Part shown: one piece after another, positions 32,984 through 56,682 of the stretch
How positions within the stretch are numbered: the first letter of the stretch is position 1
How the letters are laid out: every line of letters starts with the position of its first letter
Origin: Mesotaenium endlicherianum
Taxonomy: Eukaryota
Reading direction: 5' to 3'
Assembly: GCA_009602735.1 (NCBI GenBank)
Contig: WELA01001569.1
Location: forward strand, 1 to 64,000
Length of the DNA stretch: 64,000 nt
The notes under the pieces: model-generated
What the model saw: only the letters and a program-made list of their open reading frames with translations
What the model was told of the DNA's origin: nothing
Database searches by the model: none
Made by a program: the position numbers and the translations under genes

Positions 32984-35868
32984 GCCTCGCAGGCAACCTC
33001 TCTCGACCTTACTTACGCTAGAGCTTAGTCAATACATTGTTCCCTCCTTTCTTTGAGCTTTCTCCTCCAGCTAGGACTTAGACATGATGCAGCCACTAGA
33101 TAGGGCACAGCAGTGCCTTTAAAATTCGCGATCCACGCCTCTTTGAAGCAGATGTCACCAGCCAGACGCTCAGGATCCAGTATACGCGACTATATGTGGG
33201 CCCAGGTACTAGATGCGTCATAAATTTATGCAGAGAACTTTATACGGCAGGTGTAAGGCTGAATGTGGTTGTCATAAGATCCACCTCCATCGTGGACCTT
33301 TACCCAGACTTCAATTCTGCCGGCTTTGCTGCACATGATGTATAAGTTGGACAAGTGTGCAAACCTAGAGAACAATTGGTCTTAATTTGAGCATAATGAA
33401 GGGCAAGTACTATATGCAGCTGGCTGGTATGACGTGACAGTTATGATGTCTTCTTGTGTCCTTAGCTTTCTAGAGGAAAGGGGGGACTAGAAACACATAT
33501 CTCACTTGTTGAAGTGATTAATCGAAGTCCATGCTTGGGTGGTTTTCTTTGATTTATGACATATATGTGGTGACAAACACTTGCACTATGACGTCTATTT
33601 GAATTTGAAAGATGAATACTCCTCGCTCTTCTAGCGTGTGCTGACTCAATGGCAAGCATGCAATCCACCGTATGTACTTTTTGAAAAGATTTGCTAGCTA
33701 GTCATCTAATTTCTCTTGATTCACCTGCGTTCTTTGAAATTTAATTTGCCCACATCCCAAACGTCACTTTTGAGCCGCTAATAATGTCAAAACATTATAG
33801 TCAGCTATTTACTAATAAAATTGCACGCGGCCAGTGTGCGGAGCGGAGGAGAGCAGTTAAGTAGAAGTAGTAGTACAGAAGGGGTGCCATAAGGTCACAA
33901 AATGAAATACAAATAGCAATTGGGACGTCACATGTCTAGTATACAGATTCTCCAATTATTGATTGTAAAGTCTACTATATTGAACTTCCACTACATTGCT
34001 ATCCATATTATTACACCATGCTCGTGCCAACTCATCGAAGTTGATGTATCTACATCAATTTTCACTATAGATAGCTAGCTACTTTTGCAAATATGCCGTT
34101 GAGGACTTGGGAGTTCTAGTTTTCAACTGTTATTTGTCCGCATATTTGGTTCTTTCTATGACGTGTTAACAAACACAGACCGTGAGCGATATGATACATA
34201 TTGCAATTTCGACATACACTTGGGCCCACTCTAGAAATGGTGCAGCGACGCAGAACAAATATTTTGGGTTTCTTAACCACTTACTAATGACTGGGAAGTG
34301 CTCTGGGACCTGTGCCATTGACGTGATCTGTGGCCCTTCCCATTCCCAGACTTCAAAATTCTGAATTTACAATCTCAAAAGTAAATACATTGACTTGAAT
34401 AGTCCAAAATTCATATTTGAAAGTCACCGACGCCTGCGACACCTGTAAATCAATTTGAAGTTTGAAAGTCAATGTTGCAAGAAAATGTCAATTTGAGTAC
34501 GCTATTGTCTTGTTTGTGATTGGTTTAAATTTATGCACGTGTACATAACGTTATGCTGTGACCTTGGCAGCCTGAAAATAAAGAGTCGTGAAAGTCATCT
34601 ATATATGAAAAAGACAAATTTACACTTGGCACGTTCATCTTAAACAAACAAGTGCTTCTTGATTAGCATTGACCCCAAGTATGTGTGGGTGCAAAGCGGT
34701 TTTTGATGAGACAAATTACTAAAATACGTATAGAGGATTTGTTTATTACCACATGTATGTACAGTTTCATACTTATTTCAAATGTACGTATGGCACATGC
34801 AAGGCTCGTCATTCTAGGGTTTGAGTGAGAATGTGACGTGCCACAAGAATTCGCATGCAACCCTACATGATAGATTCCTCCTCGCTTTCATTTCCATATT
34901 TTCATATTTCCATATTTCATTTCCACTGTTCAAAGTGAAACGGTGTCACGAAGCAGATTTGTCAAACACGTTAAAAAATTTCTCCACAAGTTTTTTCCAT
35001 ACCTTCTTTTTGCACCTTTATTTTCTAATGATCATTTAGCCGGGAAATGATATATCACTTGAAAAAACCTACAAAAACACGAGCCCTTTTCACTATAACC
35101 TCTAAAATTGTAATGATATTGGTTAGATATAAGATTCATTGATATATATAATAGAAAATAAGTTCAGTCTACTGTATTATAATAATCAAGTCTGCTGGAT
35201 TATTAATATACTTAGTTTAATGACTCAGCCCAGGGGCAGTAGGCTGAAGTCAACTTAGGTCAGCTTGCTCACTTAGGTCAGCTTGCTGACACATTCTTTG
35301 ACAGTCAGCTGACTGCCGTATTCGGTAGCAGTGAACTGCCTAGTTATGCATCTAAGTGTGGTGTGCTAGACGAGTGGCCAGATGACACCCTTAGGGTGGA
35401 TGGCGATTCGGGATGATGGAGATGGCTGTGGATTTGGTTAGCTGAGGTCCTACCGACGTGGCTAACTCCCGGGTAGGGGGTGCCATTGCACTTGCCGTTG
35501 AACAGTAAACTCATTCAATGTACATATGCTAGGTATTGCTCTCGACTTCGGCATTCGGAAACGTGGCCAACTCTCTTGTATAGCTTACAAAGAGAGATCT
35601 GAATCCAAGACGAGAAGCGATTGATGTTAATTGTCTTCTAACCTTGCTTATGTATGAGTTTATTGATTGCATGATTGATGCTCGTTTACTTGCATTTGAC
35701 TTGTGAGTATCATATGCTGCTAGCATAATGTCCTTTGCTGTTTAATCAGTTAACGGAAAACACCATAAGATTACTTGTTGATATGAAGATCTTTAATTAT
35801 TTAATTATTGCCTATTGGTAAGTCGATTCATTTCAGTGGTATCGGAGTAGTTATCACAATAGTCTTGT

Positions 35869-38203
35869 ATGGTAAGGACGAGGTCTCACGCCAGCAACTC
35901 TCGGGAGATGGAGGGTGAGGACAATGACAACACGGTAGAAGGGCAAAACGAAAGTTGCGTCTTTGGACCCCGTACCTACTTAGAAACACTGCATGATGCA
36001 GGAGCTAGAGAAGCTGCAGAGGCGGCAGCAGCTCTTGCTGCAGTAGAAGCTCAACTTGCTGAGGATGAGCGTTTAGCCAAAGAGGTACAGGACGCAGTAA
36101 ACAGGAGGGCCCCTGATGAAAGGACAGTGAAGGAGCAGATGGCAGAGAGGGCCAATCTCCAAAACCAACCTCCCGCTGTGCCTACAGTTATACCTCTCCC
36201 TCAGATTCGCAGACAACTGAGTGCAACAGGCATAGCCGGAGCAACAGCAATCGGGCAAGCCAAAGCTGCTACTAATCGAGCTAATGTTGATGCTGTTGCG
36301 CTTGCTGGGCTACCACCTCAAAATATAGATCTGGGAGTATTATTTGTGCAGATGCAATCGCAAATGGCGAGCATGTATCAGTCCCAGCAGGAGGACAAAA
36401 GAATCATAATGACACTGCTGCGTGACAGAGACCAACTGGGTTCTCACACCACTAGTGGTGGTGGCAGAGGTTCTAGTAAGCCTAAGCCAAAACCTCCTCA
36501 GGACCATGATCCTGAGGGAAACAAAAAGTATTACCTGATCAAGTTTCTTGCTGATGTTGAGCAGTGGCTGAAGAACTATCCAGAACTGCAGGACTACGAG
36601 AAAGTCAGGCACACTGGTGCTCTATTAAATGGCAATACAACAGACTGGTGGCTGTATTGGAAAGGAGAGCGTAAGGCTTAACAACTTGGTGACCCTACTT
36701 GGGTAGAGTTTGTCGAGAAACTGCATGAGAAGTTTGATGTTATCAATCAGCAGGAGAAAGTTGAAAGTTATCTATGCAATGATCTCCTTGACACTGAAGC
36801 AGACCACTTCAGTTGCTGAATTTTCTCAGAAGTTCTAGGAGAACATGATGAAGCAGCCGGAATTGCCGGAGCGTTATAGGATAGCAAACTTCAGGTATGG
36901 CTTGAAGCCCGAGGTCTCCGGTCATTTTGCTGAAAAGAAGTATGAAAAATTAGCTGACTTGATCCAAGATGCTGATGCCTAGAATCAGCAACAGTTCAAT
37001 TACAAGTGCCAGAGTAATGCTTTGGTGTCTAAGATTGTCAAAAAGCCAGATGGCTCCTACAATGCCATTGAAGGAGATCAGGTTGAGGACGATCAAGGTG
37101 ATGAGTAGGAATATGAGTACAATGTTATACAGTCTAGAGGGAGAGGTGGATGCTCTTGACGTGGCTATGGAAGAGGTGGTGGTAGGACTAAGCCGAGACC
37201 AGCCTCAGCAAAATCTATTTGCTTTCATCGCTAGGAGTTGGGCCACTACAGAGAGCAGTGTCTTAGAAAACACCTTCCAAAGGTTGAGAGAAAGGATCAG
37301 CCTTAAAAAGACAACAACAGTCAATAATCCAGTCTACTGACTGTGAGGATGCTAGAGATAGTGAGTCGTCACTAGCTGCCCTCGTAGCAGGTATTATGGT
37401 CCTGCTGAACTGGATTCACTATGCAGGCCTGACAACCAGATAAAGGAGACCATCAGCAATATAGATCTCCAGAGAGAGCACACTGTGGATGACCTTGTTC
37501 CCCTTGATGTCCAACATTTCTTTGCTAAGTCAGGAGAACAATGTGAAAGTCAGGAGAAGTCAGTCCCCTCCATCCTACTGCATTGTATGAGTGCAGGTAG
37601 GAAGGTGAGGGCATTCATTGACGGAGGGGCGTCACATATTTTTATCCATAAGGACTTAGTTAAGCGGCTAAGGCTGCCTACTGTCACCCAAGGGAATAGA
37701 AAAATATTTCTTGAAGATGCCTCAAGTATCCCGGGAGGAGTTATAACCAAGTCCATTGAGGTCCAGTTAGGTTCTGGCATTGCAGTTCTAACTGAAACGC
37801 TTACATTTGAGATACTCAACATTGGCTTTTATGATCTCGTGCTAGGAAGGTCCTGGCTTAATAGACATCAAGCTGAAGTGTGTTAGAGAAGAGGTACAGT
37901 TAAAGTGAGAGGAGCCAGTGATGGGCAGACTAACTTGGCACCCACCAGTGCTCTTCCTCTTGTCCTGTATGGATGGTAACTGAAGGAAAAGGAGAGGCTT
38001 CTAGGAGGGTGCGAATTGCTGAATGCAATGGAGTTCATCGAAAGCTGGAACCAGAAGGAAGACAGAATGTTCTGTGTGGTGCTAAAAGAGGTACCTCCTC
38101 AACCTGAAAAGTGGCTGAGAAGAAGGTGAGTCATCCGGAACACCCCACCGCTGCAAAAGTTGTTGCTCAGTATACTAATGTTTTTAACATGCCTCCAAGA
38201 TTG
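35869..38203 (+). pseudogene. gag-pol: A1 gag-protease pseudogene
   Basis: Collinear with A2 gag/pol but carries premature stops (e.g. 36679-36681) and indels. Confidence 0.9.
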
Positions 38204-38957
38204 TGTAATGAATCAGTATATTAGTGGTTATAATATTCATTTAAATATAATAGTTAATCAAGTTCAGCCTGCTGAACTTTAGTTAGTAGTCAGTCTGCTG
38301 GACTTTACATAATTATCAGTTTAATGACTCAGTAAAAAGCAGCAGGCTGAAAGTCCATATAAGTCAGCTTGCTGACACATTCTTTGACAGCAAGCTGACT
38401 TCCGTACTCGGTAGCAGCGAACTGCCTTGACATGCATCTAAGTGCGATATGCTAGATGAATAGCCAGATGACATCCCTATGATGGATGGCTATTCGGGAT
38501 GATGGGAGATGGCGGTGGATTTGGTTAACCGAGGTCCTACCAACGTGGTTAACTCCCGGGTAGGCGGTGCCATCGCACTGACCGTTGAACAGTAAACTCA
38601 TTCCATGTACATATGCTAGGCATTGCTCTCGAGTTCGGCATTCGGAAACGAGGCCAACTCTCTTGTACAGCTTACTGAGAGAGATCTGAATCCAAGGCGA
38701 GAAGCCATTGATACGCACTGTCTTCTAACCTTGCTTATGTATGAGTTTACTGATTTGCATCATTGATGCTAGTTTACTCGCATTTGACTTACGAGTATTA
38801 TTCCCTGCTAGTGTATTGTCCTTTGCCGTTTAACTAGTTAACGGAAATACCATAAAGATTACTTGCTGATATAAAGATCTTTATTAATTGTTAATCGCCT
38901 ATTTGGTAAGTCGATTCATTTCAGTGGTATCGGAGCAGTTATCACAGTCTTCTTTGT

Positions 38958-40436
38958 ATGGTAAGGACAAGGTCTCAAACTAGCAACTCCCGAGACATGG
39001 AGAACCAGGATAACGAGAATGTCGAAAACCAGGCGGAAAGCCATGTAGCGGGAAACCGTACCTATTCGGAAGCAGTAGCGGATACTGCAGCTAGGGAGGC
39101 TGCAGATGAGGCAGCTGCTATTGCCTCAGTCGCAGCTCAGCAAGCTGAGGAGGAGATAGCCAGACTAGAAGCTGAACAAGTAGCAAAGGCCGCTGAAGAT
39201 ATACAAAGGAGGGAAGGACAGCCAGCTGACGAGCGCACTGTTGAAGAACTTATGGCATCAAGGGCCAATGTTCTGAACCCACCTCCTGCCGTACAACTCA
39301 ATGTACCCCTAGGTCAAATACGTGACCGGCTGAATGCGGCAGGAATTGCTGCTGCAGGAGCAAGAGGGATTGTTGAGGACACTACTCAGCGAGTAGATGC
39401 CAATGCTGCTGCTGCATTTGCTAATCTACCACCCCAAAATGTAGACTTGGGAGCATTGTTCGTTCAGATGCAGTCGCAAATGGCGACCATGTATCAGTCC
39501 CAGCAGGAGGACAAAAGAATCATAATGTCCCTACTCCGGGACAGAGACCAACTGGGGTCTCACACCACTAGTGGTGGTGGCCGAGGGCCTAGTAAGCCCA
39601 AGCCGAAACCTCCCCAGGACTATGATCCTGAGGGAAACAGAAAATATTACCTGATCAAGTTTCTCGCGGATGTTGAGCAGTGGCTGGAGAACTACCCAGA
39701 ACTGCAAGATTACGAGAAGGTCAGGCACACCGGTGCGCTACTGAAAGGCAGTGCCGCAGACTGGTGGCTTTACTGGAAGGAAGAGCGTAAGGCTCGGCAA
39801 CTCGGTGACCCTACGTGGGTAGAGTTTGTCGAGAAGTTGCATGAGAAGTTTGATGTCATCAACCAGCAGGAGAAAGCTATCTATGCGATGATCTCCCTGA
39901 CACTGAAGCAGACCACTTCAGTTGCTGAGTTTGCTCAAAAGTTCCAAGAGAACATGATGAAGCAGCCTGATTTGCCAGAACGGTATAGGATAGCATACTT
40001 CAGGTATGGCTTGAAATCCGAGGTCTCTGGTCATTTTGCTGAGAAAAAGTATGAGAAACTGGCTGACTTGATCCAGGATGCTGACGCCTGGGATCAGCAG
40101 CAGTTCAATCACAAGCGCCAGAGTAACGCTTTGGTGTCTAAGATTGTCAAAAAGCCCCACGGTTCCTACAATGCAGTTGAAGGAGACCAGGCTGAGGATA
40201 ATCAGGGTGATGAATATGAGTATGAGTACAATGCTATTCAGTCTAGAGGTAGAGGTGGTCCCTCTCGAGGTGGCTATGGAAGGGGTGGTGGTAGGACTAA
40301 GCCGAGACCAGCCTCAGCAAAATCTACTTGCTACCATTGTCAGCAGAAAGGCCACTACAGAGAACAGTGTCCGGTCAAGCACCTGCCTAAGGTCGAGAGA
40401 AAAGACCAGCCTTTAAAAGACAGCAACAGTCAGTAA
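38958..40436 (+). CDS. gag: A2 Gag (capsid plus CCHC zinc knuckle), 492 aa
   Basis: LKGSAADWW capsid motif, RGRGG segment and [14 protein letters not shown] knuckle. Confidence 0.95.
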
Positions 40437-43400
40437 TCCAGTCTACTGACTGTGAGGATGCTAGAGATAGTGAGTCGTCACTAGCTGCCCTCGTAGCAGG
40501 TATTATGGGTCCTGCTGAACTGGATTCACTATGCATGCCTGACAACCAGATAAAGGAGACCATCAGCAATATAGACGTCCAGAGAGTGCACACTCTGGAT
40601 GCTCTTGTTCCACCTGATGTCCAACATTTCTTTGCTACGTCAGGAGAACAATGCGAAAGTCAGGAAAAGACAGTCCCCCCTATCCTACTGCATTGCATGA
40701 TTGCAGGTAGGAAGGTGAGGGCATTTGTTGACGGAGGGGCGTCACATACTTTTATCCACAAGGACTTAGTTAAGCGGCTAAGGCTGCCTACTGTCACCCA
40801 AGGGAATAGAAAAATATTCCTTGGAGATGCCTCAAGTATCCCGGGAGGAGTTATAACCAAGCCTATTGAGGTCCAGTTAGGTTCTGGCATTGCAGTTCTA
40901 ACTGAAACGCTTACATTTGAGGTACTCAACACTGGCTTTTATGATCTCGTGCTAGGCAGGTCCTGGCTTAATAGACATCAAGCTGAAGTGTGTTGGAGCA
41001 GAGGTACAGTTAAAGTGAGAGGAGCCAGTGATGGGCAGACTGACTTGGCACCCACCAGTGCTCTTCCTCTTGTCCTGTGTGGATGGCAAATGAAGGAAAA
41101 GAAGAGGCTTCCAGAAGGATGCAAGTTGCTGAATGCAATGGAGTTCGTCAAAAGCTGGAACCAGAAGGAAGACAGAATGTTCTGTCTGCTGCTAAGAGAG
41201 GTACCTCCTCAACCTGAAGAAGTGGTTGAGAAAAAGGTACACCCTCCGGAACACCCTACTGCTGCAAACATTGTTGCTCAGTACACGGATGTGTTTAATA
41301 TGCCTCCAGGACTACCCCCTAAGCGGGAAGTAGATCATAGGATTGATTTATTACCTGGTAGCCAGCCACCCTGGCAACGCACGTATGGCTTGTCTTATTT
41401 GGAGAGTGAGGAGTTGAAAACACAGATTGCAGAGCTGGAGGAAAATGGTTACATTTCTCCCAGTAAATCACCGTACGGCGCACCTATCCTATTTGTTAAG
41501 AAAAAGGATGGCAGTATGCGGATGTGTGTGGATTACAGAGCCCTGAACAGAATTACAGTAAAGAACAAGTATGCTTTACCCAGAATCGAGGACTTGCTTG
41601 ATACCCTGTCTGGCGCTAAGGTGTTCAGTAAGATAGATCTCAAGAGTGGTTATCATCAAATCAGAATTGCTGAGGGGGATGAACACAAGACTGCTTTCCG
41701 CACACGTTATGGACACTATGAGTTCAACGTGATGCCATTTGGACTGACTAATGCTCCTGCTACCTTTATGGGTGCTATGAATGACATTTTCAGACCTTAT
41801 TTGGATAAGTTTGTGCAAGTTTTCCTGGATGATATTTTAATTTTCTCTAAAGATGAAGCTCAGCACACTGAACACTTAAAGAAAGTGCTGGACACTCTGC
41901 GGAAAAATCACTTGTATGCTAAAATGAGCAAGTGTGATTTCTTTAAGGAAAGTATTGAATTCTTAGGCCACGTTGTCAGTAAAGAGGGCATCAGTGTGGA
42001 TCCTAAGAAAGTCCAGACCATAAGGGACTGGCCAGTACCACAGTCTGTCTCTGAAGTTAGATCCTTCCTCGGGTTGGCTAACTACTATAGGAGATTTATT
42101 GAGAATTATTCCACAAAGGCCAGTAAACTGACTGACCTTACTAAGAAAGACATCGGGTATGTGTGGGGGGAAGAGCAGCAGGCTGCCTTCCAGACCCTTA
42201 AAGATGCCCTTTGTTCTGCCCCAGTGCTAGCCGTGTATGACCCCAGCAAACCGGTGCAGGTGGTTACTGATGCCTCTGATTTTGCCATGGGTGCTATTTT
42301 GTTGCAGCCTGCTGACAAAACCACAAAGGATGGTAAGGTACGGCAGGAGTGGCATCCTGTGTTGTATGAGTCTATGAAATTTAATCCAGCGGAGATTAAT
42401 TACTCAGTGCATGATAAAGAGCTGCTAGCTATCATTCATGTACTCAAACAGTGGAGAGCATACTTACATGGTAAAGCTTTTAAGGTGATTACAGATCATC
42501 TAGCTCTGACCCACTTTCAGAAGAAGTCCAAGCTGTCGAGGAGGGAGAACCGCTGGAGCCAGATGCTGGAGCAGTTCCAAGTCCAGATCGACTACAAACC
42601 AGGGAAGTTGAATCCTGCTGATGCACTCTCTAGAAGACCTGACTTGCAAGAAAGGAACTTTAGTCAGCATGCTGTAGATAAAGTCCTGTGTGCACTCACT
42701 TCACTAAAGGTGAAAAAGTCCTTCCTTGAACAACTTAGGAAAGCCTACCTTTCTGACCCAACATTTGAGCCCAGCCCCACTACTAGTATGTGTCGTGCTA
42801 CCGCACTCGGGTATAAGCTCAAGGGAGGGGTCTGGGTCACGGAAACCACTTCAGAGAGGCTGAAGCTGGTCATTCCTCATAATTTGGAGATAAGGTCTCT
42901 CTTACTGAGTCAAGCTCATGACAGTCTCCCGGGTGGACATTTGGGGCAGGCCAAAACTGTTGGCAAACTGGCAAAACATTATCATTGGGAGGGGTTACCC
43001 CGGGAGGTCTTGAAATATGTCAAGTCCTGTGACCAGTGTCAGAGAAATAAGTCTCGGCACACACCACCCGGAGGTCTCTTGCAATCGCTACCCATCCCAG
43101 CGGGACGCTGGGAAACTATATCCATGGACTGGGTGGTCTCACTACCAAGAACTGCCAACGGGCATGATTCAATACTGGTAGTCGTGGATAAACTGACAAA
43201 AATGGTCATTTTTATCCCCACAACTGTCAAAGTGACTGCACTCGAAACAGCGAGACAGTTTTACAACCATGTAGTATGCCAACATGGGCTCCCTTCTAAT
43301 ATCATCTCAGACAGAGACTCAAAATTCACCTCTAAGTTCTGGAGAGCTTTAATGGGGTTAATGGGAGTCAAACAGCTGCTCAGCACAGCAAACCACCCTC

Positions 43401-44221
43401 AGACTGATGGGCAGACTGAAAGAACTAACCGAGTTCTGCAGGAGGTGCTGAGAGCATATATTAACCAAAAACAAGATAATTGGGATGACCTGTTGCCTCA
43501 AATTCAGTTTGCGGTCAACAGTGCGGTGCACGCGTCAACGGGCAAAACTCCTTTTGAACTCAGCCTGGGTAGAGTCCCTAAGTCTCCTCTAGATGTGCTA
43601 GGGGAATCTTTAACTCACCCTGAAGGGATTGACAACCCGGTCTCCCTCCAGTTAACTCAGGAGTTTGCTGACACCCTGTCAGAAGTCCAACGAAACTTGC
43701 ACACGGCCCAAGAAAACCAACAAAAATACGCTAATCAACACCGTCGGGAACTGACATTTTCCAAGGGGGATTTAGTCAAACTGCATTCTCAGCACCTGTA
43801 CCTCCCTGGTGTGGTCAAGAAAAAGCTTGGCCCTGTCTGGGTCGGTCCATATTCGGTGGTCCGTCGTGTCGGTCAGAATGCTTACAAACTGAACATGTCA
43901 GCTGAATACAAGGGGCACCCGGTCTTTAATGTCTCCTTCCTGGAACCGTACATCAAAGGTGATACACTGTTCACAGGTCGGTTCCCTGTCCAACCGGGAC
44001 CGGTCCCCGCTGTCCGGGACGGCGACCCTGAGGAATATGAGGTCGATGAGATTTTAGACGCTCGCTCGGTCCGTCGATCGTCTAAATATGTCATGAAATA
44101 CCTCATTCGATGGAAGGGTTACGATGCCTCTGGGGACACTTGGGAGTTTAAGGACCACTTGACCAATGCCAAAGGGGCGTTGACACGGTTCCACCTTCGG
44201 GCCGCTGGAGTCCCTCCATAA
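40412..44221 (+). CDS. pol: A2 Pol (PR-RT-RNaseH-IN-chromodomain), probably entered by -1 frameshift from gag
   Basis: [19 protein letters not shown] and VFLDD; RNase H TDASD; integrase HHCC, MDWV, SDRD and [11 protein letters not shown] motif; chromodomain EYEVDEIL...YLIRWKGY...TWE. The frame is open from the TTTAAAA site and the first ATG is at 40505. Confidence 0.95.
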
Positions 44222-44488
44222 CTGTCATTTCAGTTGACACGGGAAGGTGACAGGCGGTCCTGTCTCCATTTAAGTTGGAGGGGAAAATATATGACAGTTA
44301 GTGAGCGAGAGCGATAAAAACACACTCATACGTTTATGTGTAGCGCATCGCAACTACGTCAACTTTTAGCAATCATCCTGTAAGGTAAACAGCAGCGAAG
44401 CCACTATACTAAATACTAACATACTTCCTGCAATCCCTATGACAAAGGTCCATATCCTACTAACTTGTGCCCTGGTTACATGTGCAGG

Positions 44489-46165
44489 ATGGCGCCCACC
44501 ACACAAAAGGAGGACAGAAAGCGCAAGGCAGAAGAAGCCAGGAGGACAATGGAGCAATACCAGAAGGAGCTGGCGGCGACGTCCCTCACCAGGAGAGAAC
44601 AAGAAAGGGTCCGCAAACAACAAGAGGCGGCAGAAGAGGCACAGAGGAAGAAGGATCAGGAAGCGGAAAACCTCAGGAAGGCTGAGGAGGAGAGACAGAA
44701 GAAACAGCAAGAAGAAGCGGCAGCGGCAGAAGAGGAGAAAAGAAAAAAGATTGAAGCGGACAGACAGAAGAGCTTGGCCACTTACAGGTATACTGTGGTG
44801 GGTGGCCAAAACTTCGATAACCTGAAGGAAGCATTGCTGGCAGCCCAGGAGATCAACAGGCTGGAACAGACAACACTGCTACAGAAGGAAGGAGCTACAG
44901 CACTGGACAGGTACATCGAGACACACACCGGCGTGGTCCTTTACGAAGATTATGCTAAGATGGTGGGCTATACAGCAGAGCAGGCCCGGTATCTCGCAGA
45001 TGATTCAGAGGACAAGCCGGTCCCCATACCGGGAATAGTGGGAGATCAGAGACTCATCCGGATGGTGAGCATGCGGCCCGATAGCTTTAAGGATACGGTA
45101 TTCTACCTCACACTCCTGCCAGCTTACAATGAAGTTGAGAGAAGGAGCTGGGAGTACTTGGCCAGGGAAGCAGGACAGCAGATGTTCTCTCCCCACTGGT
45201 TCCCGTGTAAACTGAGGAAGGCTGAGCACGGACCCCAGTACTACCAGCAGCCAACAGACTGGAGGTGGATGACCGTCACAAATAAGAAGCAGGAGTGTGA
45301 CCGAGCCCAACCGGATGACTTCCACTATGGCCTAGACGGCTATCTCATCCTACCACCTCACATTGCCCCTTGGGACCCCAGGCTGAATGGATGCCTGAGC
45401 AATATGAATGCAGAGACCAAGGAACATAGGAGGAGGGGAAGAGAGTACTTCTCTAAGGGAAAGCATGCCTTTGTCAAATGGGCAAAGAATGCAGGCCGGA
45501 TAGATATCAGTAGGCTGAAGGCCAAGCAACCTCCAGCGCGCCCTAAGAAAGGGAGGTCGGTAGACTACTCCATGTCTACTAGGGAGCAGGACGACTTAGT
45601 GGACGAGACCCCTACTCTCTCCGAGGAGGAGGATGAGGAGGATGAGGAAGAAGAACAAGGCAGAGGAGAAGCATCAGCAGCGGGTACTCAGGATACCCAG
45701 GGACAGGCAGTGGCACTTCCTAAAGAACCACGATCAGGTGTGTGGAATGTGATCCCCGTTATGGCGACAACTGGACCCCGCGCTCGCTCCCCCAGCCAAC
45801 CTGCCCAAGCAGGGGAAGAAGCTGATCTGACTGTACTGGGCAGCAGACACAGACAGAAATCCCCAGAGGACACGGGTGTCAGAAGAGGGACACGCGGGTG
45901 GGTTAGAGGTATGCCAGCCTCCCCCTCCGCTCAGGGGCATGTACCTCTAGCCAATGTATTTCAGCATTCTACTGGAATGCCTGTCTATGTGGGAATCAAC
46001 ACCCAAGTGGTTGAAGAGCAGGCCACCATCCTCCGTTCTCCTCGAGGTCCAACTTTAGAGCAAACAGGGTTCTTTAGAAGGCCAGCTGACAGACCTAGAG
46101 GGCTGTCCAGATCTAGGTCCAGATCTCCGTCTCCTGACCCTGAAGCCCCAGGAACAACCCCTTAA
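44489..46165 (+). CDS. A2 ORF3, ~558 aa protein of unknown function (coiled-coil N-terminus, aromatic-rich central region, acidic and RS-rich tail)
   Basis: Uninterrupted 1.7-kb sense ORF between pol and the 3' LTR. The ATG lies just after TACTAAC...TGCAG|G. Confidence 0.8.
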   Translation: MAPTTQKEDRKRKAEEARRTMEQYQKELAATSLTRREQERVRKQQEAAEEAQRKKDQEAENLRKAEEERQKKQQEEAAAAEEEKRKKIEADRQKSLATYRYTVVGGQNFDNLKEALLAAQEINRLEQTTLLQKEGATALDRYIETHTGVVLYEDYAKMVGYTAEQARYLADDSEDKPVPIPGIVGDQRLIRMVSMRPDSFKDTVFYLTLLPAYNEVERRSWEYLAREAGQQMFSPHWFPCKLRKAEHGPQYYQQPTDWRWMTVTNKKQECDRAQPDDFHYGLDGYLILPPHIAPWDPRLNGCLSNMNAETKEHRRRGREYFSKGKHAFVKWAKNAGRIDISRLKAKQPPARPKKGRSVDYSMSTREQDDLVDETPTLSEEEDEEDEEEEQGRGEASAAGTQDTQGQAVALPKEPRSGVWNVIPVMATTGPRARSPSQPAQAGEEADLTVLGSRHRQKSPEDTGVRRGTRGWVRGMPASPSAQGHVPLANVFQHSTGMPVYVGINTQVVEEQATILRSPRGPTLEQTGFFRRPADRPRGLSRSRSRSPSPDPEAPGTTP

Positions 46166-49100
46166 GGTGACAGATTGAAGAGGCAGTCAGTAAGGGAGGC
46201 TGGTCAGGTTCAGTTCCCTTATTTAAAATTTCTGCAGTTTAATGTTGTCGAGGCGACAACAAGTTAAGTTGGAGGGATTGTAATGAATCAGTATATTAGT
46301 GGTTATAATATTTATTTAAATATAATAGTTAATCAAGTTCAGCCTGCTGAACTTTAGTTAGTAGTCAGTCTGCTGGACTTTACATAATTATCAGTTTAAT
46401 GACTCAGTAAAAAGCAGCAGGCTGAAAGTCCATATAAGTCAGCTTGCTGACACATTCTTTGACAGCAAGCTGACTTCCGTACTCGGTAGCAGCGAACTGC
46501 CTTGATATGCATCTAAGTGCGATATGCTAGATGAATAGCCAGATGACATCCCTATGATGGATGGCTATTCGGGATGATGGGAGATGGCGGTGGATTTGGT
46601 TAACCGAGGTCCTACCAACGTGGTTAACTCCCGGGTAGGCGGTGCCATCGCACTGACCGTTGAACAGTAAACTCATTCCATGTACATATGCTAGGCATTG
46701 CCCTCGAGTTCGGCATTCGGAAACGAGGCCAACTCTCTTGTACAGCTTACTGAGAGAGATCTGAATCCAAGGCGAGAAGCCATTGATACGCACTGTCTTC
46801 TAACCTTGCTTATGTATGAGTTTACTGATTTGCATCATTGATGCTAGTTTACTCGCATTTGACTTACGAGTATTATTCCCTGTTAGTGTATTGTCCTTTG
46901 CCGTTTAACTAGTTAACGGAAATACCATAAGATTACTTGCTGATATAAAGATCTTTATTAATTGTTAATCGCCTATTTGGTAAGTCGATTCATTTCAGAT
47001 TGCCCCTTCAGAGAGAAGTAGATCATAAGATTGATTTATTACCTGGGAGTCAACCACCTTGGCAACGTACATATGGCTTGTCTCATGTGGAGAGTGAAGA
47101 TTTAAAAACACATATTGCAGAGCTGGAGAAAAATGGTTATACTTCTCCCAGTAAATCACCTTACGGTGCGCCCATCTTATTTGTTAAGATGAAGTGTGAC
47201 GTTTCTGCTTTTCGGGAGGATCTTTTCCTCGATATTCAAGGAATGTTTAAATGAAGTGGAAAGAAAATCTATATTCTTGTGCAAATTGACAAATCCTCGA
47301 GAAAGCGAAAATGAAAACTAACTTAGAATGTGTGCTTGTGAGAGTTGCACTCAAAATGACTCTACAGGTATTTATACCTGCACAACGTGAGGCACTGGAG
47401 TGCTTCGAGTCACCACCTAGGGCACTGGTTCATGTTCAACGTAAACGGACGTAGGGGTACGACCCATTTGGCCGAATGCTCGAAACGCGCCGTTTGGCCG
47501 TTTGGTGACTTTTCGACGGTTTCCGAAAAACCGTTTCACGCCAAACGGGCGTATTTGCGTTCACGCGACTTTTTGAAAAGTCGCGACTGTTCGCGGAGTC
47601 GCGTACACGTGCTTTCGTCATGAATCAGTAGTTACAAATAACTACTTCGCCAATTGGTTAGGTGTGAACGTTTCAAAAGACGAGTCGCGGGTTCAAATCC
47701 GCTCGGATGCAAAATCGCATTGCATATTATGTGTCGTTTGACTTTTACGACTGTTTCTTCGTATTAACGACTGGTTGTAAATGCAAAATCTATGACTGTG
47801 CATTATGTCGCGACTTCTATCCGTTTGACGGTGCCGCACACGCAGCGCAAGCTACGGCCACCCAGGTACGGAAAGTCAACGTTGACTCACCGACCACTTG
47901 ACTGACTACGTCGCAGTCAGCGGTTATGTCGGCGTCAAGACCACTGGCAAGGGGTCAATGTCAATGTGCCCCACACCCAGGGATGGGGGAGGTTTTGACA
48001 GCATAGACAGCCGCGAGGCTAGAAGCTAGGGATTAGTGATGAGCCGCCCAGCAGGTACCAAGTCAGGTACTGTGTGACTGGCAGATTAAGCCAGGTCAAG
48101 CCCGCAATGCCCAGATAGGTTACGGCCGCCCGGTTGGGAATCTTGAGCACGTGGCATTTGCTTGTACACGTCGCTCAGGAGTTCTTAGCCATGAGCCAAT
48201 TAGGCGTGACTGCCAGCTGAGAAGCTAAGCAGCCACGCGCGACAGTCACGAGGTGTGCATGCATGCCGAGTGACTACGAGTTTGAGTTGAGCATGGCTAG
48301 GCAGAAGCGACATGCAGCTAAGCTTTGTGATTAAGCACGGCATTCTCAAAAGATGACGCTCTGTGGTGCCTGCGGAAGGCACGAATCTTGCCTGAGACAT
48401 GTCATTCACTCTCACGCACTTTTGCCAAGAACCAGAAGGAGCAGAAGGAGCAGAAAGAAGGAGAAGAAGGGCGCGAAGAAGAAGAAGGAGTTCCCAAGGC
48501 CATTGGAGAGCCGAGGCCCCACGCTTCTGCCGACGCTGAAGATTCTTCTCAGTGTATCATAGATAAGTTAGGATTGTAGGAGTTCCCAAGAGGGAATCTC
48601 ACTGTTGAAAGTAGGAGAACTGCAAAATAGAATCTGCTAGGAGGTTAGCGCAGATTCGGCCGAACGCCACTAGTGTGGGTGAAGCAGCCTTAAAATGGTG
48701 AGTTGTGTGTTAGTTTCCAAGTTCTCAGAAGTCGCATTCGCATCTCGAAGAGAAAGAGTAGTATTGGCAGATAAAGCTCTCAGTGAAGAACTGAGTGAGC
48801 CTAGCCTGGCAGTGAAGAGCTGTTAAGGCGCGGTGTTAAGTGAAGAGCTTGACCCAAGCCAGCATAGACATGTAGTTTCAGAGTTTTGTAAGCTGAGACT
48901 TTGTGAAAGTTAAGCGAAAGCCTGAAGGGCAATTTTCTTTGAATCTGACGTTGTATGTCAAGCTGCTTGAAGTGTGATTTTTGCAAATTACGATTTGCTC
49001 GCCTGTGAACCCAAGAACCTTAAGGCATAAAGCCTATGTGGAAGTAAGAGACTTCCGTCCTTATAAGAGGAATTAAGGCAAGGCAAGTATTTTTAAAAAA

Positions 49101-49564
49101 AATTGCTAAGTCTTAGGATAAGTAGATGGTGGGTGTAGTGAAACAGATAGATAAAGTACTTAGTGAAACATAATAGTTTATCTATTCAAGACAAAGATCT
49201 TTGAACACAAGTGGTAGCTTCTTGAAAGAGAGATGGCTTCTTGAAAGTTAATATACTTCTGGATTTTGGCAAGTACAAGAGTGATTCTGGAATGTCTTTC
49301 TATGTTCTAGCTCTTGTTTATATACTTGCTACACAAGTAATTTCTAGGAAAGTGTATGTTGATGTGTTGGCACCCAACACATCCCAAAACTTGCCACCTC
49401 TTTCTAGAATAATGTACACATGTCCTTTTGACCTAAAAATGGCACATTTGACTTTTGCCACATGGAGTTCTTCTAGGTCTTTCCTCTAACTTCGAAAATG
49501 CCTTGGAAGGTTCAAAGGACATGAACCAAGTTACTAGAGTACCTATTCACACTTGACTCCACAC

Positions 49565-49863
49565 NNNNNNNNNNNNNNNNNNNNNNNNNNNNNNNNNNNN
49601 NNNNNNNNNNNNNNNNNNNNNNNNNNNNNNNNNNNNNNNNNNNNNNNNNNNNNNNNNNNNNNNNNNNNNNNNNNNNNNNNNNNNNNNNNNNNNNNNNNNN
49701 NNNNNNNNNNNNNNNNNNNNNNNNNNNNNNNNNNNNNNNNNNNNNNNNNNNNNNNNNNNNNNNNNNNNNNNNNNNNNNNNNNNNNNNNNNNNNNNNNNNN
49801 NNNNNNNNNNNNNNNNNNNNNNNNNNNNNNNNNNNNNNNNNNNNNNNNNNNNNNNNNNNNNNN
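49565..49863. other. Assembly gap (N run) between duplicated B-LTR segments
   Basis: N run. Confidence 0.99.
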
Positions 49864-50505
49864 GTGGTAGCTTCTTGAAAGAGAGATGGCTTCTTGAAAG
49901 TTAATATACTTCTGGATTTTGGCAAGTACAAGAGTGATTCTGGAATGTCTTTCTATGTTCTAGCTCTTGTTTATATACTTGCTACACAAGTAATTTCTAG
50001 GAAAGTGTATGTTGATGTGTTGGCACCCAACACATCCCAAAACTTGCCACCTCTTTCTAGAATAATGTACACATGTCCTTTTGACCTAAAAATGGCACAT
50101 TTGACTTTTGCCACATGGAGTTCTTCTAGGTCTTTCCTCTAACTTCGAAAATGCCTTGGAAGGTTCAAAGGACATGTGTAGTGAAACAGATAGATAAAGT
50201 ACTTAGTAAAACAGAATAGTTTATCTACCAGAGTCTTGAGTTTCAGAGCATTCCAAGTTCAGGGGAAGGCACAATGTCAGAAGGCATATTCTGCCCTAAC
50301 AATGCCAGCAGCCTGACCCCCTTCTACTTAGAGCATCATATCTCTCTCACCAGTGCTTCAAATTGAGCAAACTTGGACTCTAAATGACCGGCTACTCATG
50401 GACTACAGCCAGGTAAATTTTCAGAATTTATTATGCAGAGACCTATCACCAGTAGCAGTTTTAGTTTTCTGTCCAGAAACTGCAAGAACAGAAGAGTGTC
50501 TAATG

Positions 50506-53500
50506 TCAATTTTTCCTCTTTCTTGTTCTTGCAGGCTGCCTCCAAGGGGTCTTCTGCTGCTTCTTGATGGTGGCAGGCTGCCTCCCTGAAGTCTTCGGGC
50601 TTCTAGTAGAGAGACTTGGGGCTGGTCCAAGATGGGGGTTGGCGGCATGGAAGCGCTTCAACTTTCTCTGAACTTTGTCAAGGTAGTGCGCCGCCACCCA
50701 ACTATTCTCCGAATCTGGATATCCTTTCCACTTGATCAAGTATTGCTGCTGTCTCCTGAAATTTCTCATAGCCACTATGTCTTCCACTTCGTACTCCAAA
50801 TGATCATCCACTATTGTTGGGGCTGGTGGGGTTGTCACACGTCCTGGGAACTTGTTGTCGGGTTGCACATATGGCTTGAAGAGGGAAGCGTGGAATACGG
50901 GGTCGATGTGCATAGTCTGGGGAAGTTCTAGCTTGAAAGCAACGGGGTTGACTTGCTGGATAATCTTGAAGGGTCCCAAATACTTGGGAGAGAACTTGCT
51001 GCCGGCAGGCCTGTTGTTCAGGGAAATGTTCTTGGATGATAGTAACACGTTGTCACCCACTCTGTACGTAATTTCTCTTCTGGATCTGTTCGCCACTCTT
51101 GCTTGAGCATCTTGCGCGTGTTGTAGAGCTTTCTTCGCTGCTGTAAGGGCTGCTTCTAATGTCTCCATAAAATCTGTGGCTGCAGGTACTTCATCATGGC
51201 CAGCCGTGAAGCTCAGTGGCGTGGTCGGATGGAAGCCATAGTTGAGGAAGAATGGGGACTCTTGGGTAGAGGCCTGCGTAGTGTTGTTGTAGGCAAACTC
51301 GAGGGGGGTCAAGTACATGTCCCAGTCTTGCTCGAGGGTAGACACGTAGGCCTTTAGAGAGGTCTTTAGGGTACGATTCATACGCTCGGTTTGCCCATCT
51401 GATTGTGGGTGGTAGGCAGTAGACATATCCAGCGATGTACCCAAGTTCTTGAAGAGATTTTTCCAGAAATGGCTTGTGAATCTTGGATCTCTATCTGACA
51501 CAATTCTTGATGGTAGTCCATGGAGTCGGAAGATGTTGTCAAAGATGAGTCTTGCAAGTTGTGGTGCTGTAGCCTTAGTCGTCGTGGGAATAAAATGAGC
51601 CATCTTGGTAAGTCTGTCCACCGCCGTGAGTATTGCATTATGGCCTCGAGGTGTCACGGGCAAGTCCACGATAAGGTCCATTGAGATGTCCGTCCATTGT
51701 CTTTCGGGGATTGGTAGTGGTTGGAGGAGTCCTCCCGCCTTTTGCGATGATGGCTTGATTCTTTGGCATGTGTCACAGCTCCTGCAGTACTCCTTGACTT
51801 GCTTAGACATGCCTGGCCAACAATAAGTCCTAGCTAGAACGCCCGTGGTCCTTAGGATTCCAAAGTGTCCTCCAAGAGGGTTGTCGTGTGCTTCTCGTAG
51901 AAGCAAGAGCCGGAGGTCTAAGTCATTAGGAACACATCTCTGGCCCGTATCTTGCCTCACCCAATAATTGCCTTCTTGCTTCTTGCATGGGTCCAAGGCT
52001 GCTTCTCCGTTCTTGTAGTAAGGGTCTCTTTCATAGGCGGCTGAAAATCGAGCTTCCAGATCTGTCTTCAGGGATACCATCACTGCATTTAATTGCAGTC
52101 TTGAGAGGGGGTCAGCCGGGTTTGTCTTGCCGGGCTGGTACTGAATCGTGATGTTGTATTGTTGCAAGTATCCGCTCCATCTTGCTTGTCTCCTTGAGAG
52201 ATACGGCTGCGTTTGGAGGTGCTTTAACGCCTCGTGGTCCGTGGTGACCAGTACTTTGCGTCCTTCAACGTAGCAGCGCCAAACCTTCAAGGCATGTACA
52301 ATCGCCAATGCCTCTCGCTCCGTGGTTGTATAATTTTGCTCGGCTGGATTTAGCTTCCTTGACTCGTAGGCGATGGGCTGCAGTCCCTTGCCTTGGTCTT
52401 GAAGCAGGATTGCTCCTATTGCATAGGAAGATGCATCGGTGATGACGTGGAAGGGCCAATCTGGGTTTGGACTTGGGAGTGTGAGCACCGGGGATGTGGT
52501 CAATCTTCGCTTTAACTCTTGAAATGCCTCTTCCTCTTTCTCGGTCCATGTATATAGCCTGTCCTTCTTGAGTAGATCTGTCAGGGGGGCTGCTATGTGC
52601 GAGAAGCCTTGGATGAATTTTCTGTACCAATTGGCAAATCCCAAGAATGACTGGAGTTCTTTCTTGGTCGTGGGGGTTGGCCATTCCTCCACCACCGTGG
52701 TCTTCTTGGGGTCTATCTTGATGCCATCAGCAGTCACGTGGAGACCTAGGAACTCCACTTCTTGTTTGGCAAACTCGCATTTTGACTCCTTCGCAAACAG
52801 CTTGTTTTGCTTCAATACTTCAAGGACTTCTTTCAAGTGTCTCGCATGCTCTTCAAGGGTCTTGCTGTAGATAAGGATGTCATCGATGAATACCACCACA
52901 AATCTGTCCAACATGGGCTGAAATATGGTGTTCATCATAGTCATGAAAGTTGCTGGCGCGTTGGTGAGTCCAAATGGCAGGACCATGAACTCAAAATGTC
53001 CATATCTTGTCCTGAATGCCGTCTTCTCTATGTCCGGTTCTGCGATGCGAATCTGGTGGTAGCCGCTCCGTAAGTCAATCTTCGTGAAGTACTTGGCTCC
53101 AACCAGCCGGTCCATGAGCTCATCCATGCGCGGCAGCGGGTATCGATTCTTGATGGTGATCTTGTTGAGGGCGCGATAGTCCACACACATCCTCAAGGTA
53201 CCATCTTTCTTCTTGACAAATAGCACCGGGGCTCCAAATGGCGACTTGCTAGGTCGAATGAAGCCATGCTCCAGTAGCTCCTTGATTTGCTTCTTGACTT
53301 CGTCTAGCTCCGTGTATGACATTTTGAACGTAGGCCGAGAGATGGGCTTGCTTCCGGGCTCCAACTCTATCTTGTGGTCTACGAATCTTTTGGGGGGTAG
53401 GCCCTTGGGCAATTCCGGGGAGAACACTTCTTTGTAGTCCTCTAAGACTTCTTGTATCTCCTTGGGAACGGGGCTGCCTTCTTGACTCTCGATGTCTTTC

Positions 53501-54114
53501 TTGATGTCTTTTGGCGTGATCAAGGCCAAAAGAAGCTCGTGTCCCTTCCTCACAAGTCTCTTGAGTTGGAGGGCGGACAATAGTATCTCGTGTGCCGGCT
53601 TCTGGATGTCTTGGGTCTGGATATTCTGGATTGCGCGCAAAATACAGATTCTTGAAGTGATGTCATTCTTGATCTTGATAGTACCGGTCCTCCAATCAAC
53701 TTGGGGGTTGTGCTTGGTCAACCAAGGCGTCCCTAGGATGACGTCGTACTTGCCCAATTGCATGGGGGAGAACACTACTCTATCCTTGAAGGACTTGATA
53801 GAGAGTGCCAAGGGGTACGTCTTCTTGGAAGGGGTAGTATAGGAGAATCCATCGGGCATCATAATCTCCTCGTCGTGGTCAAGAGTTCGCATAGTAATAC
53901 CGTGCTTGGTGGCAAAATCTGCAGCAATGAAGTTGCCTTGAGCTCCGCTATCCACCAAGATGTGGACCTTCTCTCCTCCAAGGTAACCTCTCAAACTCAT
54001 TGGGGCTGGAACGTCGTCTTCAACGGGGGTCTCCACCTCACTTGGCGTGTTGCCTTCTCGTGAAGTGGGTCTTGGGGTGGTAGGCTCCTGGCCTACCGGC
54101 GCTGTCCGTTTTTT
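50506..54114 (-). CDS. pol: B1 Pol (PR-RT-RNaseH-IN-chromodomain), intact, -1 frame relative to gag
   Basis: [32 protein letters not shown] integrase, GPF, chromodomain EYEVEDIV...YLIKWKGY...SW and a basic tail. Confidence 0.95.
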
Positions 54115-55373
54115 GACAACTTTTTGGGGCATGAAAGTGCACGATGGCCCTTTTCCTTGCAATAAAAGCATAGTCCAGCCGTCATGAGAGCTTCTTTTTC
54201 AGCCGGGGAGAGTCTTGCTTTCACTCCTTGCTGGTTTCTTGCATCATAAGTGTCATTGGAGGGTCTTCCACTCTTCCGGGCAGCCGCGGGGTCCCTTTTA
54301 ATAACTCCGATTTCCATGGGTGTGGGTCCAGATTCGGATGTGGAAGGGGCTGCGTACACCCGCGTCGTCGGTACCCGTGAAGATGAAGGCACGGAGTGCT
54401 TGAAATCCAAGGTATCCACCTTTTGGGCCACTTCAATGATCTTTGAGAAGTCCGTCAAGTCGCGTAACTCCACTTCCTTTGCCACCTTGGGTTTGAGGCC
54501 AAAGATGTAGCGGTCAATCTTCTCCTCGAGAGACATGTTGGGGATCTCAAGAGTGAGGGCGTGAAATCTGGATGTATACTCTTGAACGGACGTCGTTTGC
54601 TTGAGATGGTGGAGCTTTCCTCGGGCAATCTTCTCCGCATTGATGGGCATGAATTGCTTCTTGAGGGCCTCACGAAAATCTGCCCATCTTGCATATGATG
54701 GTGGGGGCTCTTGGCCGAGCATGGGGTGCGCCATAGCTTGATATATAGCCGCTTGATAGTTACGCCACCATGATGTTGCTGCTCCTCTAAGTAAGGTAAC
54801 GGCAAAGGGAACGTAGTCCTCCTCGGGTACTTCAAGGAATGCGAGGTACGTCTCCACTTGGTAGAGCCATAAATTCAGGTTGGCACCTTTCCCGGGGTTG
54901 AAAGTGTCGGGTTTGCCGGGCTTGATGAGTTTCCTTGCTCTCGTTGGCTCTTGTGGAGGCGCTTGAGCCGGGGCTGGATTTTGAGCATTGCTCGCAATAG
55001 GGGCAACCATGGCAGCCATAGCTTCTCTTGACGCTTGCACGGTTGCTTCATAGGTGGCCAAGCCCACTTGGTTGTGGACGGTCATTAGGAAGGCTGCCCA
55101 CTCATTTGCGGGAACTCCTTGTGGTGGGGTCAACTTTGCTATAGCGGCTGCCACGGGATTTGACGGTGCTCCTCCTTGTGGTGCTTCTTGTTGTTGGAGA
55201 TTTCCTTGAGTAGGCTCTCCCATCGACGCTGGAGGAGGGTGTGCTCCTCCTTGTGGTGCTTCTTGTTGTTGCAGATTTTCTTGAGTGGGCTCTCCCATCG
55301 GCGCTGGAGGAGGGTGTCTTGGAGAGGAAGGGCTTCCTTCGAAAGCTTGCTGTTGGTCTTGAGGATCGGCCAT
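54093..55373 (-). CDS. gag: B1 Gag, 426 aa
   Basis: [27 protein letters not shown] and [14 protein letters not shown]. Confidence 0.95.
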
Positions 55374-55950
55374 CTTCTTGTGCTACCAAAGTGCCTAGCT
55401 CCGATACCACTGTAGTGAAACAGATAGATAAAGTACTTAGTAAAACAGAATACTTTATCTATTCAAGACAAGGATCTTTGAACACAAGTGGTAGCTTCTT
55501 GAAAGAGAGATGGCTTCTTGAAAGTTAATATATTTCTGGATTTTGGCAAGTACAAGAGTGATTCTGGAATGTCTTTCTATGTTCTAGCTCTTGTTTATAT
55601 ACTTGCTACATAAGTAATTTCTAGGAAGGTGTATGTTGATGTGTTGGCACCCAACACATCCCAAAACTTGCCACCTCTTTCTAGAATAATGTACACATGT
55701 CCTTTTGACCTAAAAATGGCACATTTGACTTTTGCCACATGGAGTTCTTCTAGGTCTTTCCTCTAACTTCGAAAATGCCTTGGAAGGTTCAAAGGACATG
55801 AACCAAGTTACTAGAGTACCTATTCACACTTGACTCCACACAATACTACTCCAAATATATTTGAAAACATTAAAATATATGCAAACTAATATATAATAAC
55901 TCAAATCACTACATCACCCCCCCGATAGAAAAAGCGACGTCTCGGCGCGT

Positions 55951-56073
55951 CAAGTCAGGTCTTACACATGTGGAGCAAACTAGTCAACAGTTTCAAGTCA
56001 GATGCCACACATGTGAAGAGGACTAGTCAAAGGCGCCAAGTCAGGTGCTACACATGTAAGGTAGACTAGGCAA
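55951..56073. repeat. Three imperfect 43-bp tandem units in the B 3' UTR next to the PPT
   Basis: Units start at 55951, 55994 and 56037, each caagtcag-N5-acacatgt-N7-actag.caa. Confidence 0.8.
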
Positions 56074-56682
56074 GGTCGTAGGTGGTGTGACCTTATTGGC
56101 TAGCCTACTCCTTAATGATAAAGAAAATTGTACAAGTTGGCCCAGAATCTGCCACGAACTCAAAAATTCATAGCGGCCACAGAACTGCTCCAAATCTGAA
56201 AATTCGAGTGCCAGACGGACCGCGTCGGAGAACTCTACCGGGTCACCAAATTTGAGAGCATTCTCATTTCTGGAGTGTCGTTGAGAGCTGAGAGAGTAGG
56301 CACTCCTCCAAATCTGTGCAGAAACTTCTGAAAATCATAAGTCCTTCTATACTTCTCCAAATTCTGCAAACTAAGTCTCAAACTGGGCGCTGTAAGATGT
56401 TCTACCAGAGTCTTGAGTTTCAGAGCATTCCAAGTTCAGGGGAGGGCACAATGTCAGAAGGCATATTCTGCCCTAACAATGCCAGCAGCCTGACCCCCTT
56501 CTACTTAGAGCATCATATCTCTCTCACCAGTGCTCCAAATTGAGCAAACTTGGACTCTAAATGACCGGCTACTCATGGACTACAGCCAGGTAAATTTTCA
56601 GAATTTATTATGCAGAGACCTATTACCAGTAGCAGTTTTAGTTTTCTGTCCAGAAACTGCGAGAAGAGAAGAGTGTCTAATG

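Follow-up and report, generated by a model that had tools for sequence, protein, structure and literature searches.

A young chromovirus and its genomic surroundings

According to our analysis, positions 38204 to 46997 on the plus strand of the window, that is, of the whole stretch of 64,000 nucleotides (64 kb) that was analyzed, are occupied by a young, intact, full-length chromovirus LTR retrotransposon, in which a sense open reading frame, ORF3, lies between pol and the 3′ LTR. All features of the element given below are on the plus strand. The 5′ LTR (720 nt; 38204 to 38923) and the 3′ LTR (719 nt; 46279 to 46997) run from TG to CA, are 99.3% identical, with four substitutions and one indel between them, and are flanked by the 5-bp target-site duplication GATTG (38199 to 38203 and 46998 to 47002). 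The primer binding site (PBS) at 38925 to 38936 is presumably of the tRNA-Met type. It is followed by an intact gag gene (38958 to 40436), encoding a Ty3 capsid and a CCHC knuckle, and by an intact pol gene (40505 to 44221), in which Pfam profiles match, in order, PR, RT, RH, INT, SH3, and a chromodomain. A frameshift is predicted from a slippery heptamer, T TTA AAA, which stands in the gag register at 40412 to 40418 and from which the −1 frame runs open into pol. The chromodomain (about 44036 to 44194; PF00385, E 2e-8, pol residues 1178 to 1230) is a caged one, with Y, W, and Y at what we take to be the cage positions. A first copy of the polypurine tract, PPT1 (44270 to 44285), comes after pol, while the terminal polypurine tract (PPT) is found at 46264 to 46278. 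The order gag and then PR-RT-RH-INT, the chromodomain at the C-terminal end of INT, the TG...CA LTRs, the 5-bp duplication, the PBS, and the PPT are those of Ty3/gypsy chromoviruses.

The element is inserted in the pol gene of A1, an older, broken relative (35109 to 47189, plus strand; about 83% identical) that ends before any ORF3 position; beyond the insertion, the A1 pol starts again at 47003 and breaks off near 47190. The counterpart of the slippery site in A1 (near 37303) is interrupted by a stop, and a 41-nt imperfect palindrome found in both LTRs of the element (38361 to 38401 and 46436 to 46476) is present in A1 too. The best-ranked relatives of pol are 39 to 58% identical, and the named ones come mostly from green algae and land plants. 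In an RT-RH tree of 57 of 111 sequences, comprising all those with a name that cover the region, the nearest 25 of those without one, and the two elements of the window, the element groups with Closterium, one Haematococcus, and two unnamed elements, with weak support (0.86), and falls outside the angiosperm group. The tRNA-type PBS argues against a typical, self-priming member of Tcn1. Taken together with a RUNKEL-type gene of the host in the vicinity, these affinities make a green alga the probable host.

The rest of the window contains a host gene for a RUNKEL/ULK4-type kinase (23929 to 32983), the later exons of which have a GC3 of 0.88 to 0.96, a single-exon TBCC gene (19263 to 20324; GC3 0.47), and minus-strand exons at about 22140 to 22860 which, judging from a motif, presumably belong to a GINS Psf2 gene. 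The minus strand at 49133 to 62019 is occupied by a second chromovirus family, whose two tandem units have LTR-like repeats in common; there is no room for a third gene in it, because its pol ends close to the repeat. After the truncated end of A1, a repeat at 47805 to 49072 has about 74% inverted similarity to 1253 to 2486.

Reading frame, conservation, and protein features of ORF3

ORF3 (44480 to 46165) is stop-free and encodes 561 amino acids from the ATG at 44480 or 558 from the ATG at 44489, with the next Met at 44549. The original prediction of an intact frame in the position of env holds, with its coordinates, and the length of ORF3 exceeds chance, since the longest stop-free run in 2,000 shuffles is 256 codons. 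An overlapping frame within ORF3 was considered and rejected, the longest one reaching 133 codons. The protein begins with a charged helical region (residues 4 to 98; 44489 to 44773), a predicted coiled coil consisting to 79% of E, K, R, Q, and A and containing the motifs RKRK and KRKK, which is followed by an aromatic-rich core with three Cys and seven His (residues 99 to 345; 44774 to 45514), by a basic patch and then an acidic run (residues 346 to 400; 45515 to 45679), and by a low-complexity tail rich in P, S, and G (residues 401 to 561; 45680 to 46162), with an RS motif at its end. Hydropathy and composition bear out this architecture as it had been described before, including the lack of a transmembrane helix: our hydropathy scan finds no transmembrane segment or signal peptide, the best 19-residue window scoring 0.77, and the N terminus is highly charged. 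ORF3 is not env-like, because it is without such a helix. It contains several NLS-like motifs, loose NES-like patterns, and one GW motif, in the tail.

Copies of the element were viewed through public sequencing runs, the reads and contigs of which were placed on the element. Among the 40 best-supported of 262 variant rows, 22 lie inside ORF3, and it should be kept in mind that related copies share ancestry. Between codons 5 and 401, all eight listed variants are synonymous, against an expected fraction of 0.21 to 0.29 (P about 4e-6 to 5e-5 if the variants are independent), whereas in the tail, between codons 429 and 515, this is true of 4 of 11 (Fisher P = 0.013 for the two regions); three more listed variants fall at codons 1 to 4. 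For comparison, 16 of the 25 listed pol variants are synonymous. A more distant sister, represented by a contig of 1,041 nt from run X5 and about 83% identical over 45296 to 46156, differs by 1-nt gaps in two pairs, each of which cancels out, and by a length change of 12 nt and, judged from this gap pattern, keeps the ORF3 frame. The LTRs of A1 and the element, which are similarly diverged, differ by 17 indels, 16 of which are not multiples of 3, although this is a rough control obtained with different aligners. Contigs that cover ORF3 in X1 and X4, runs that may stem from the source of the window itself, are nearly identical to it (0 to 7 differences per piece), and the depths in X4, 40 to 69 against 13 to 15 for single haplotypes, suggest by rough inference three to five close copies. 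On the other side, one contig of depth 2 has an uncompensated 1-nt deletion at 44995. In our estimate, the odds are good that ORF3 is a genuine coding gene and that purifying selection acts on its first 400 codons, the aromatic core included; constraint on the tail is poor, and the RS motif may not be conserved. Contigs of X1 and X5 that share the terminal PPT region differ in sequence upstream of 46239 to 46243; they are further members of the family in which the end of ORF3 has diverged or is absent.

ORF3 is an orphan protein with no detectable relative in the libraries searched. A word-seeded search of 5.8 billion proteins yielded no relative among 1,237 candidates with lengths of 308 to 982 or among 286 with lengths of 144 to 459, and a HMMER scan of 1.84 billion representative proteins yielded none at E 0.001, host-like ones included. 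No match was found in NCBIfam or among PDB sequences; PHROGs gave three rows, all with E of 0.2 or worse, and Rfam gave one match at chance level. None of 86 pattern matches in metagenome contigs and none of four viral contigs were related to ORF3, and neither the 120 relatives of pol nor the six frames of the window contained a relative. In Pfam, only Borrelia_P83 matched, on the coiled coil and with 15 bits against a cut-off of 33.6; profiles of known transposable element (TE) accessory domains (Athila ORF1, PMD, Transposase_28, DNMT, and DAM) and of dsRNA-binding domains did not match. A dsRNA-binding fold, suggested by secondary structure, was dropped. The best ESM Atlas scores, 0.83 and 0.88, are below the 0.9 level of a lead and identified no family. 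AlphaFold models built without an alignment reached a pLDDT of 33 and 43, and Foldseek returned nothing at E 0.001 for these models, which are too poor to inform. Among the findings that the original prediction had named as speaking against it were a match to a known TE or host domain and an ORF3 broken or neutrally evolving in sister copies: the searches found no relative, and the synonymous variants and the frame kept in the 83% sister do not point to the second.

Origin of the 3′ region and candidate splice signals

Within the window, a 13-mer shared by PPT1 and the terminal PPT occurs at 44270 and 46264 only, and ORF3 lies between these two copies. In runs X1, X4, X5, X15, X16, and X17, sequences leave that of the window at 44283/44285, after pol and PPT1, and continue into a different LTR-like sequence starting with TG. 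The sister elements which they represent are about 88% identical at the end of pol and end where ORF3 begins, and no ORF3-like sequence was seen after PPT1 in the reads and contigs of close sisters; PPT1 is the working 3′ end of these elements. In the window copy, PPT1 is followed at 44290 to 44304 by a relic of the LTR start of the sister family, with 14 of 15 nt matching, TG changed to TA, and an offset of 4 nt, a type of match of which 0.1 is expected by chance in the whole window. Because PPT1 and this dead LTR start precede ORF3, and because the sisters have another LTR directly after pol, ORF3 looks like an added 3′ cassette, and the sequence makes it probable that capture added ORF3, the second PPT, and the present LTR behind the old 3′ end. 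Alternatively, ORF3 may at first have been part of a longer LTR. The spacer before ORF3 is unlike the LTR of the element itself (score 37 against a shuffle mean of 34).

The leader of ORF3 contains signals of a candidate intron. A candidate splice donor, G/GTAAGT (the slash marks the splice position), lies at 38905 to 38911, near the end of the 5′ LTR, and is the same 7-mer as the host intron donor at 24453; GTAAGT at 38906 is unique in the 5′ LTR and internal region. Its conservation in A1 had been put forward as support, and the counterpart is indeed there (35817/35818), but it is weak and not independent evidence of splicing, because the donor falls within the final 22 nt of the LTR, a block identical in A1 and the element, and the end of the LTR is constrained anyway. 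Two matches to the branch-point sequence TACTAAC, at 44414 to 44420 and at 44458 to 44464, about 24 nt before the AG, are confirmed and make up two of the three plus-strand matches in the 64 kb; in 20,000 Markov resamples of the 267-nt spacer, the probability of at least two matches was 0.0006 and that of one in the −50 to −12 zone was 0.005. The proposed acceptor, GTGCAG/G (44482 to 44488), is likewise in place, its AG (44486 to 44487) being the first past the second branch point and separated by one G from the ATG at 44489. Of 15 TGCAG sites in the element, it alone has TACTAAC upstream. What the earlier description of this leader overlooked are a second in-frame ATG, at 44480 and thus upstream of the candidate acceptor, and two local donor-like sites between 44380 and 44390, GTAAGG (44380) and G/GTAAAC (44385), which would form an intron of 108 or 103 nt with the same acceptor.

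These signals are of the host type, as they match the six annotated introns of the kinase gene, in which seven exons, once joined, give 156 codons with kinase motifs and no stop. Five of the six introns end in TGCAG/G and two in GTGCAG/G, one starts with G/GTAAGT, and four have CTRAY within 60 nt; the local donors resemble the host donors GTAAGG and GTAAAT. The host introns are 152 to 350 nt long, compared with 5,582 nt for an intron from the LTR donor. We discarded another donor, at the gag ATG (38961), because a splice from it would be out of frame with ORF3. On these sequence grounds we lean toward the acceptor at 44487 being used; that it is joined to the LTR donor is a tentative proposal, and joining to a local donor is rather doubtful.

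RNA was viewed in five raw runs, read in part (6, 13, 24, 24, and 24%) and with a threshold of three reads for a joint. No junction from 38905 to 44488 was present in these portions, where the depth in the acceptor bin was under 3 (0, 0, and 2.3 in X9, X12, and X15), and no loose end at 44488 was present among 16 of 23 rows for X16, X17, X4, and X5, with a depth at the acceptor of 0 to 3; with both donor and acceptor included in the reference, the one joint listed is in pol. The RNA data are compatible with this splice and with its absence, the depth being too thin to decide. The RNA signal over ORF3 is weak and comes from both strands. Faint reads of presumed sense orientation begin near 44500 in X16 and X17, and in X17 reads of the opposite strand cross the acceptor, the signal near 44650 to 44725 being partly low-identity noise. 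A contig of X5 (44434 to 44679) crosses the acceptor unspliced; its branch point and AG are still compatible with splicing, its ATG at 44489 reads CTG, and it keeps the ATG at 44480, which splicing would remove, so that a spliced form of this copy would start at Met24. X5 is probably an RNA run, because it shares the dominant pol-end haplotype with X15 to X17 and has a minus-strand joint with canonical intron ends. That joint is in a contig of depth 3 which skips 44472 to 45944, with the minus-strand ends GAG/GTACAT and CCAG/G, as would be expected of a cryptic intron if an antisense transcript ran through ORF3. In three RNA runs, loose ends are abundant at 38923 and 39026; they point to transcription, together with flanking DNA, of two copies located elsewhere, one an LTR and the other a truncated LTR-gag piece.

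Possible roles of ORF3 and comparison with known systems

From anatomy and analogy we conclude, with a probability of about 0.4, that ORF3 acts in the nucleus as a helper of the full-length RNA of its element. Acquired as a cassette downstream of the old 3′ end and made from a spliced subgenomic RNA via the acceptor at 44487, ORF3 would be a soluble, self-associating nuclear protein that aids the synthesis or export of this RNA, in the manner of CERV or Rev. This role is plausible because a strong donor and acceptor flanking gag-pol would mean that unspliced RNA must still be exported; if the spliced form encoded a basic protein with a coiled coil and an RS tail, the export loop would be closed, while sisters that pass from pol and PPT1 into the other LTR would not need such a helper. 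Judged by composition, the broader statement that ORF3 is a nuclear nucleic-acid regulator has an even chance of being right. The boldest version is quite a long shot: an algal chromovirus would have become independently "complex" through a grafted orphan gene, spliced from the 5′ LTR donor, whose product is a Rev/CERV-type factor licensing export of the unspliced genome. If true, it would be the first Rev/CERV-type circuit in the green lineage, on a fold without known relative, and the cassette-less sisters in the same genomes would be natural controls.

ORF3 may instead be a genuine accessory gene driven by a promoter of its own in the spacer, where the relic LTR start lies, translated from an unspliced RNA or one with a leader intron of 103 to 108 nt, and acting not in RNA export but in chromatin or transcription, by anti-silencing or transactivation, like VANC or gene23 of Grande. 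The host-like local donors, the great length of an LTR-donor intron next to those of the host, and the ATG at 44480 kept in the X5 copy that lacks the one at 44489 agree with such an arrangement, and the acidic run beside the basic patch agrees with such a role; gene23 is nuclear and has its own promoter (PMC7264820), and VANC has a coiled coil according to the accessible part of PMC13547354. Nevertheless, X16 and X17 are without first-mate-minus reads in 44294 to 44437, at low depth and with the strand uncalibrated, and ORF3 matches none of the Pfam TE accessory families, so that we consider this explanation somewhat improbable. An action in the cytoplasm or particle, as a partner of Gag, an adaptor for nuclear import, or a suppressor of small-RNA silencing, is unlikely. 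It would suit the long coiled coil and basic surface, and the accessible parts of two reports describe TE accessory proteins as predicted to be interaction-rich (PMC13547354) and propose an RNA-silencing role for Tekay extra ORFs (PMC11728184), but the several NLS-like motifs speak against it, as do the single GW motif in the relaxed tail and the absence of a dsRNA-binding or other Pfam match.

A further explanation is that ORF3 is a passenger, carried in at the PPT out of the host or a different mobile element and useless to the element now, with a synonymous bias that predates capture. The junction visible after PPT1 and the close sisters without ORF3-like sequence would fit, and codon usage weakly hints at a different mobile origin, since it is slightly nearer to pol of the neighboring element B (r = 0.56) than to the element's own gag and pol (0.47 and 0.46), with a T3 of 0.17 against 0.27 to 0.29. 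Yet the synonymous variants separate close copies of the family, mostly 90 to 99% alike, so selection acted after these copies had split; moreover, the CpG depletion of ORF3 (0.42) equals that of gag (0.48) and pol (0.43), and the 1.84 billion proteins contained no host-like relative, which makes a useless passenger very improbable. An env-like membrane or movement protein is hardly credible and, as a membrane protein, largely excluded: its position between pol and the 3′ LTR, its sense strand, and an acceptor in front are as for Bagy2 (PMC7264820), and against these stand the low hydropathy, the charged N terminus, and the lack of a family match described above.

Extra ORFs as such are well known, thousands having been catalogued in plant LTR retrotransposons, with mostly obscure origin and function (PMC7264820 and the accessible text of PMC6317226). 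The original statement that they are uncommon in chromoviruses was overstated, since REXdb records sense 3′ extra ORFs (eORFs) in 18% of 782 Tekay chromoviruses; none is listed there for Chlamyvir (44 elements), Tcn1 (1,500), Reina, Galadriel, CRM, or unclassified chromoviruses (PMC6317226). ORF3 resembles the eORF-3′F class of plant Ty3/gypsy elements, described there as sense frames of at least 250 codons that separate pol from the 3′ LTR, form a heterogeneous set, and for the most part have no known domains (PMC6317226). It is set beside these eORFs by description; a difference is that its element carries a chromodomain with the cage and falls, loosely, among algal rather than angiosperm elements. 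The env-like ORFs of Athila, Bagy2, and SIRE share its position and sense strand, and splicing is reported for Bagy2, but they often have transmembrane segments, which ORF3 lacks, and belong to non-chromovirus or copia lineages (PMC7264820). Grande gene23, the Tekay 5′ aORF (PMC11728184), the fungal Boty brtn, and the "add. ORF" of fungal Gypsy elements (PMC2864245) are, as far as the accessible texts go, orphans conserved within their families, several with NLS, helices, and disorder; the ORFs of Grande and Boty are antisense and the sunflower Tekay aORF lies upstream of gag, whereas ORF3 is sense and downstream of pol. Algal Gypsy elements are described, in the accessible parts of two reports, with methyltransferases within pol (PMC5890265; bioRxiv 10.64898/2026.05.21.726589), and a sense third gene was not found for any algal chromovirus among the top-ranked matches of mainly non-subscription literature. 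PMC3605345 and PMC1142308 also entered this comparison.

Bdelloid rotifer LTR retrotransposons carry non-env, family-specific ORF3s behind pol, which are gained and lost among close families, are expressed from spliced messages, and in some cases have coiled coils; many encode GDSL, DEDDy, or transmembrane proteins, none of which the ORF3 studied here matches (accessible text of PMC5408684). The closest precedent for the proposed job, by analogy, is CERV of the Caenorhabditis elegans element Cer1, a nuclear non-env protein of 517 amino acids that is translated from a spliced mRNA, carries a coiled-coil domain and a Cys loop, and is needed to export unspliced genomic RNA of Cer1, as the accessible part of its description states (PMC10309623). 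Cer1 is a nematode Gypsy element, ORF3 is known from sequence alone, and the searches of Pfam, PDB sequences, and the 1.84 billion proteins gave no sequence link from ORF3 to CERV or Rev. The claim of an undescribed system therefore does not stand, its kind being known from Tekay, fungal Gypsy elements, and nematode CERV: the layout with an extra 3′ gene is already known, and the protein itself is new. What this locus offers is an intact young copy, signs of selection on an orphan core, and a capture scar, namely the old PPT and dead LTR start, together with close sisters in which no ORF3 is seen at that place, which makes the gain and the job of the gene testable. Should ORF3 be an RNA export factor, the green lineage would have a parallel to Rev and CERV; otherwise ORF3 adds another orphan to the known accessory genes, in a chromovirus group for which REXdb lists no such ORF.
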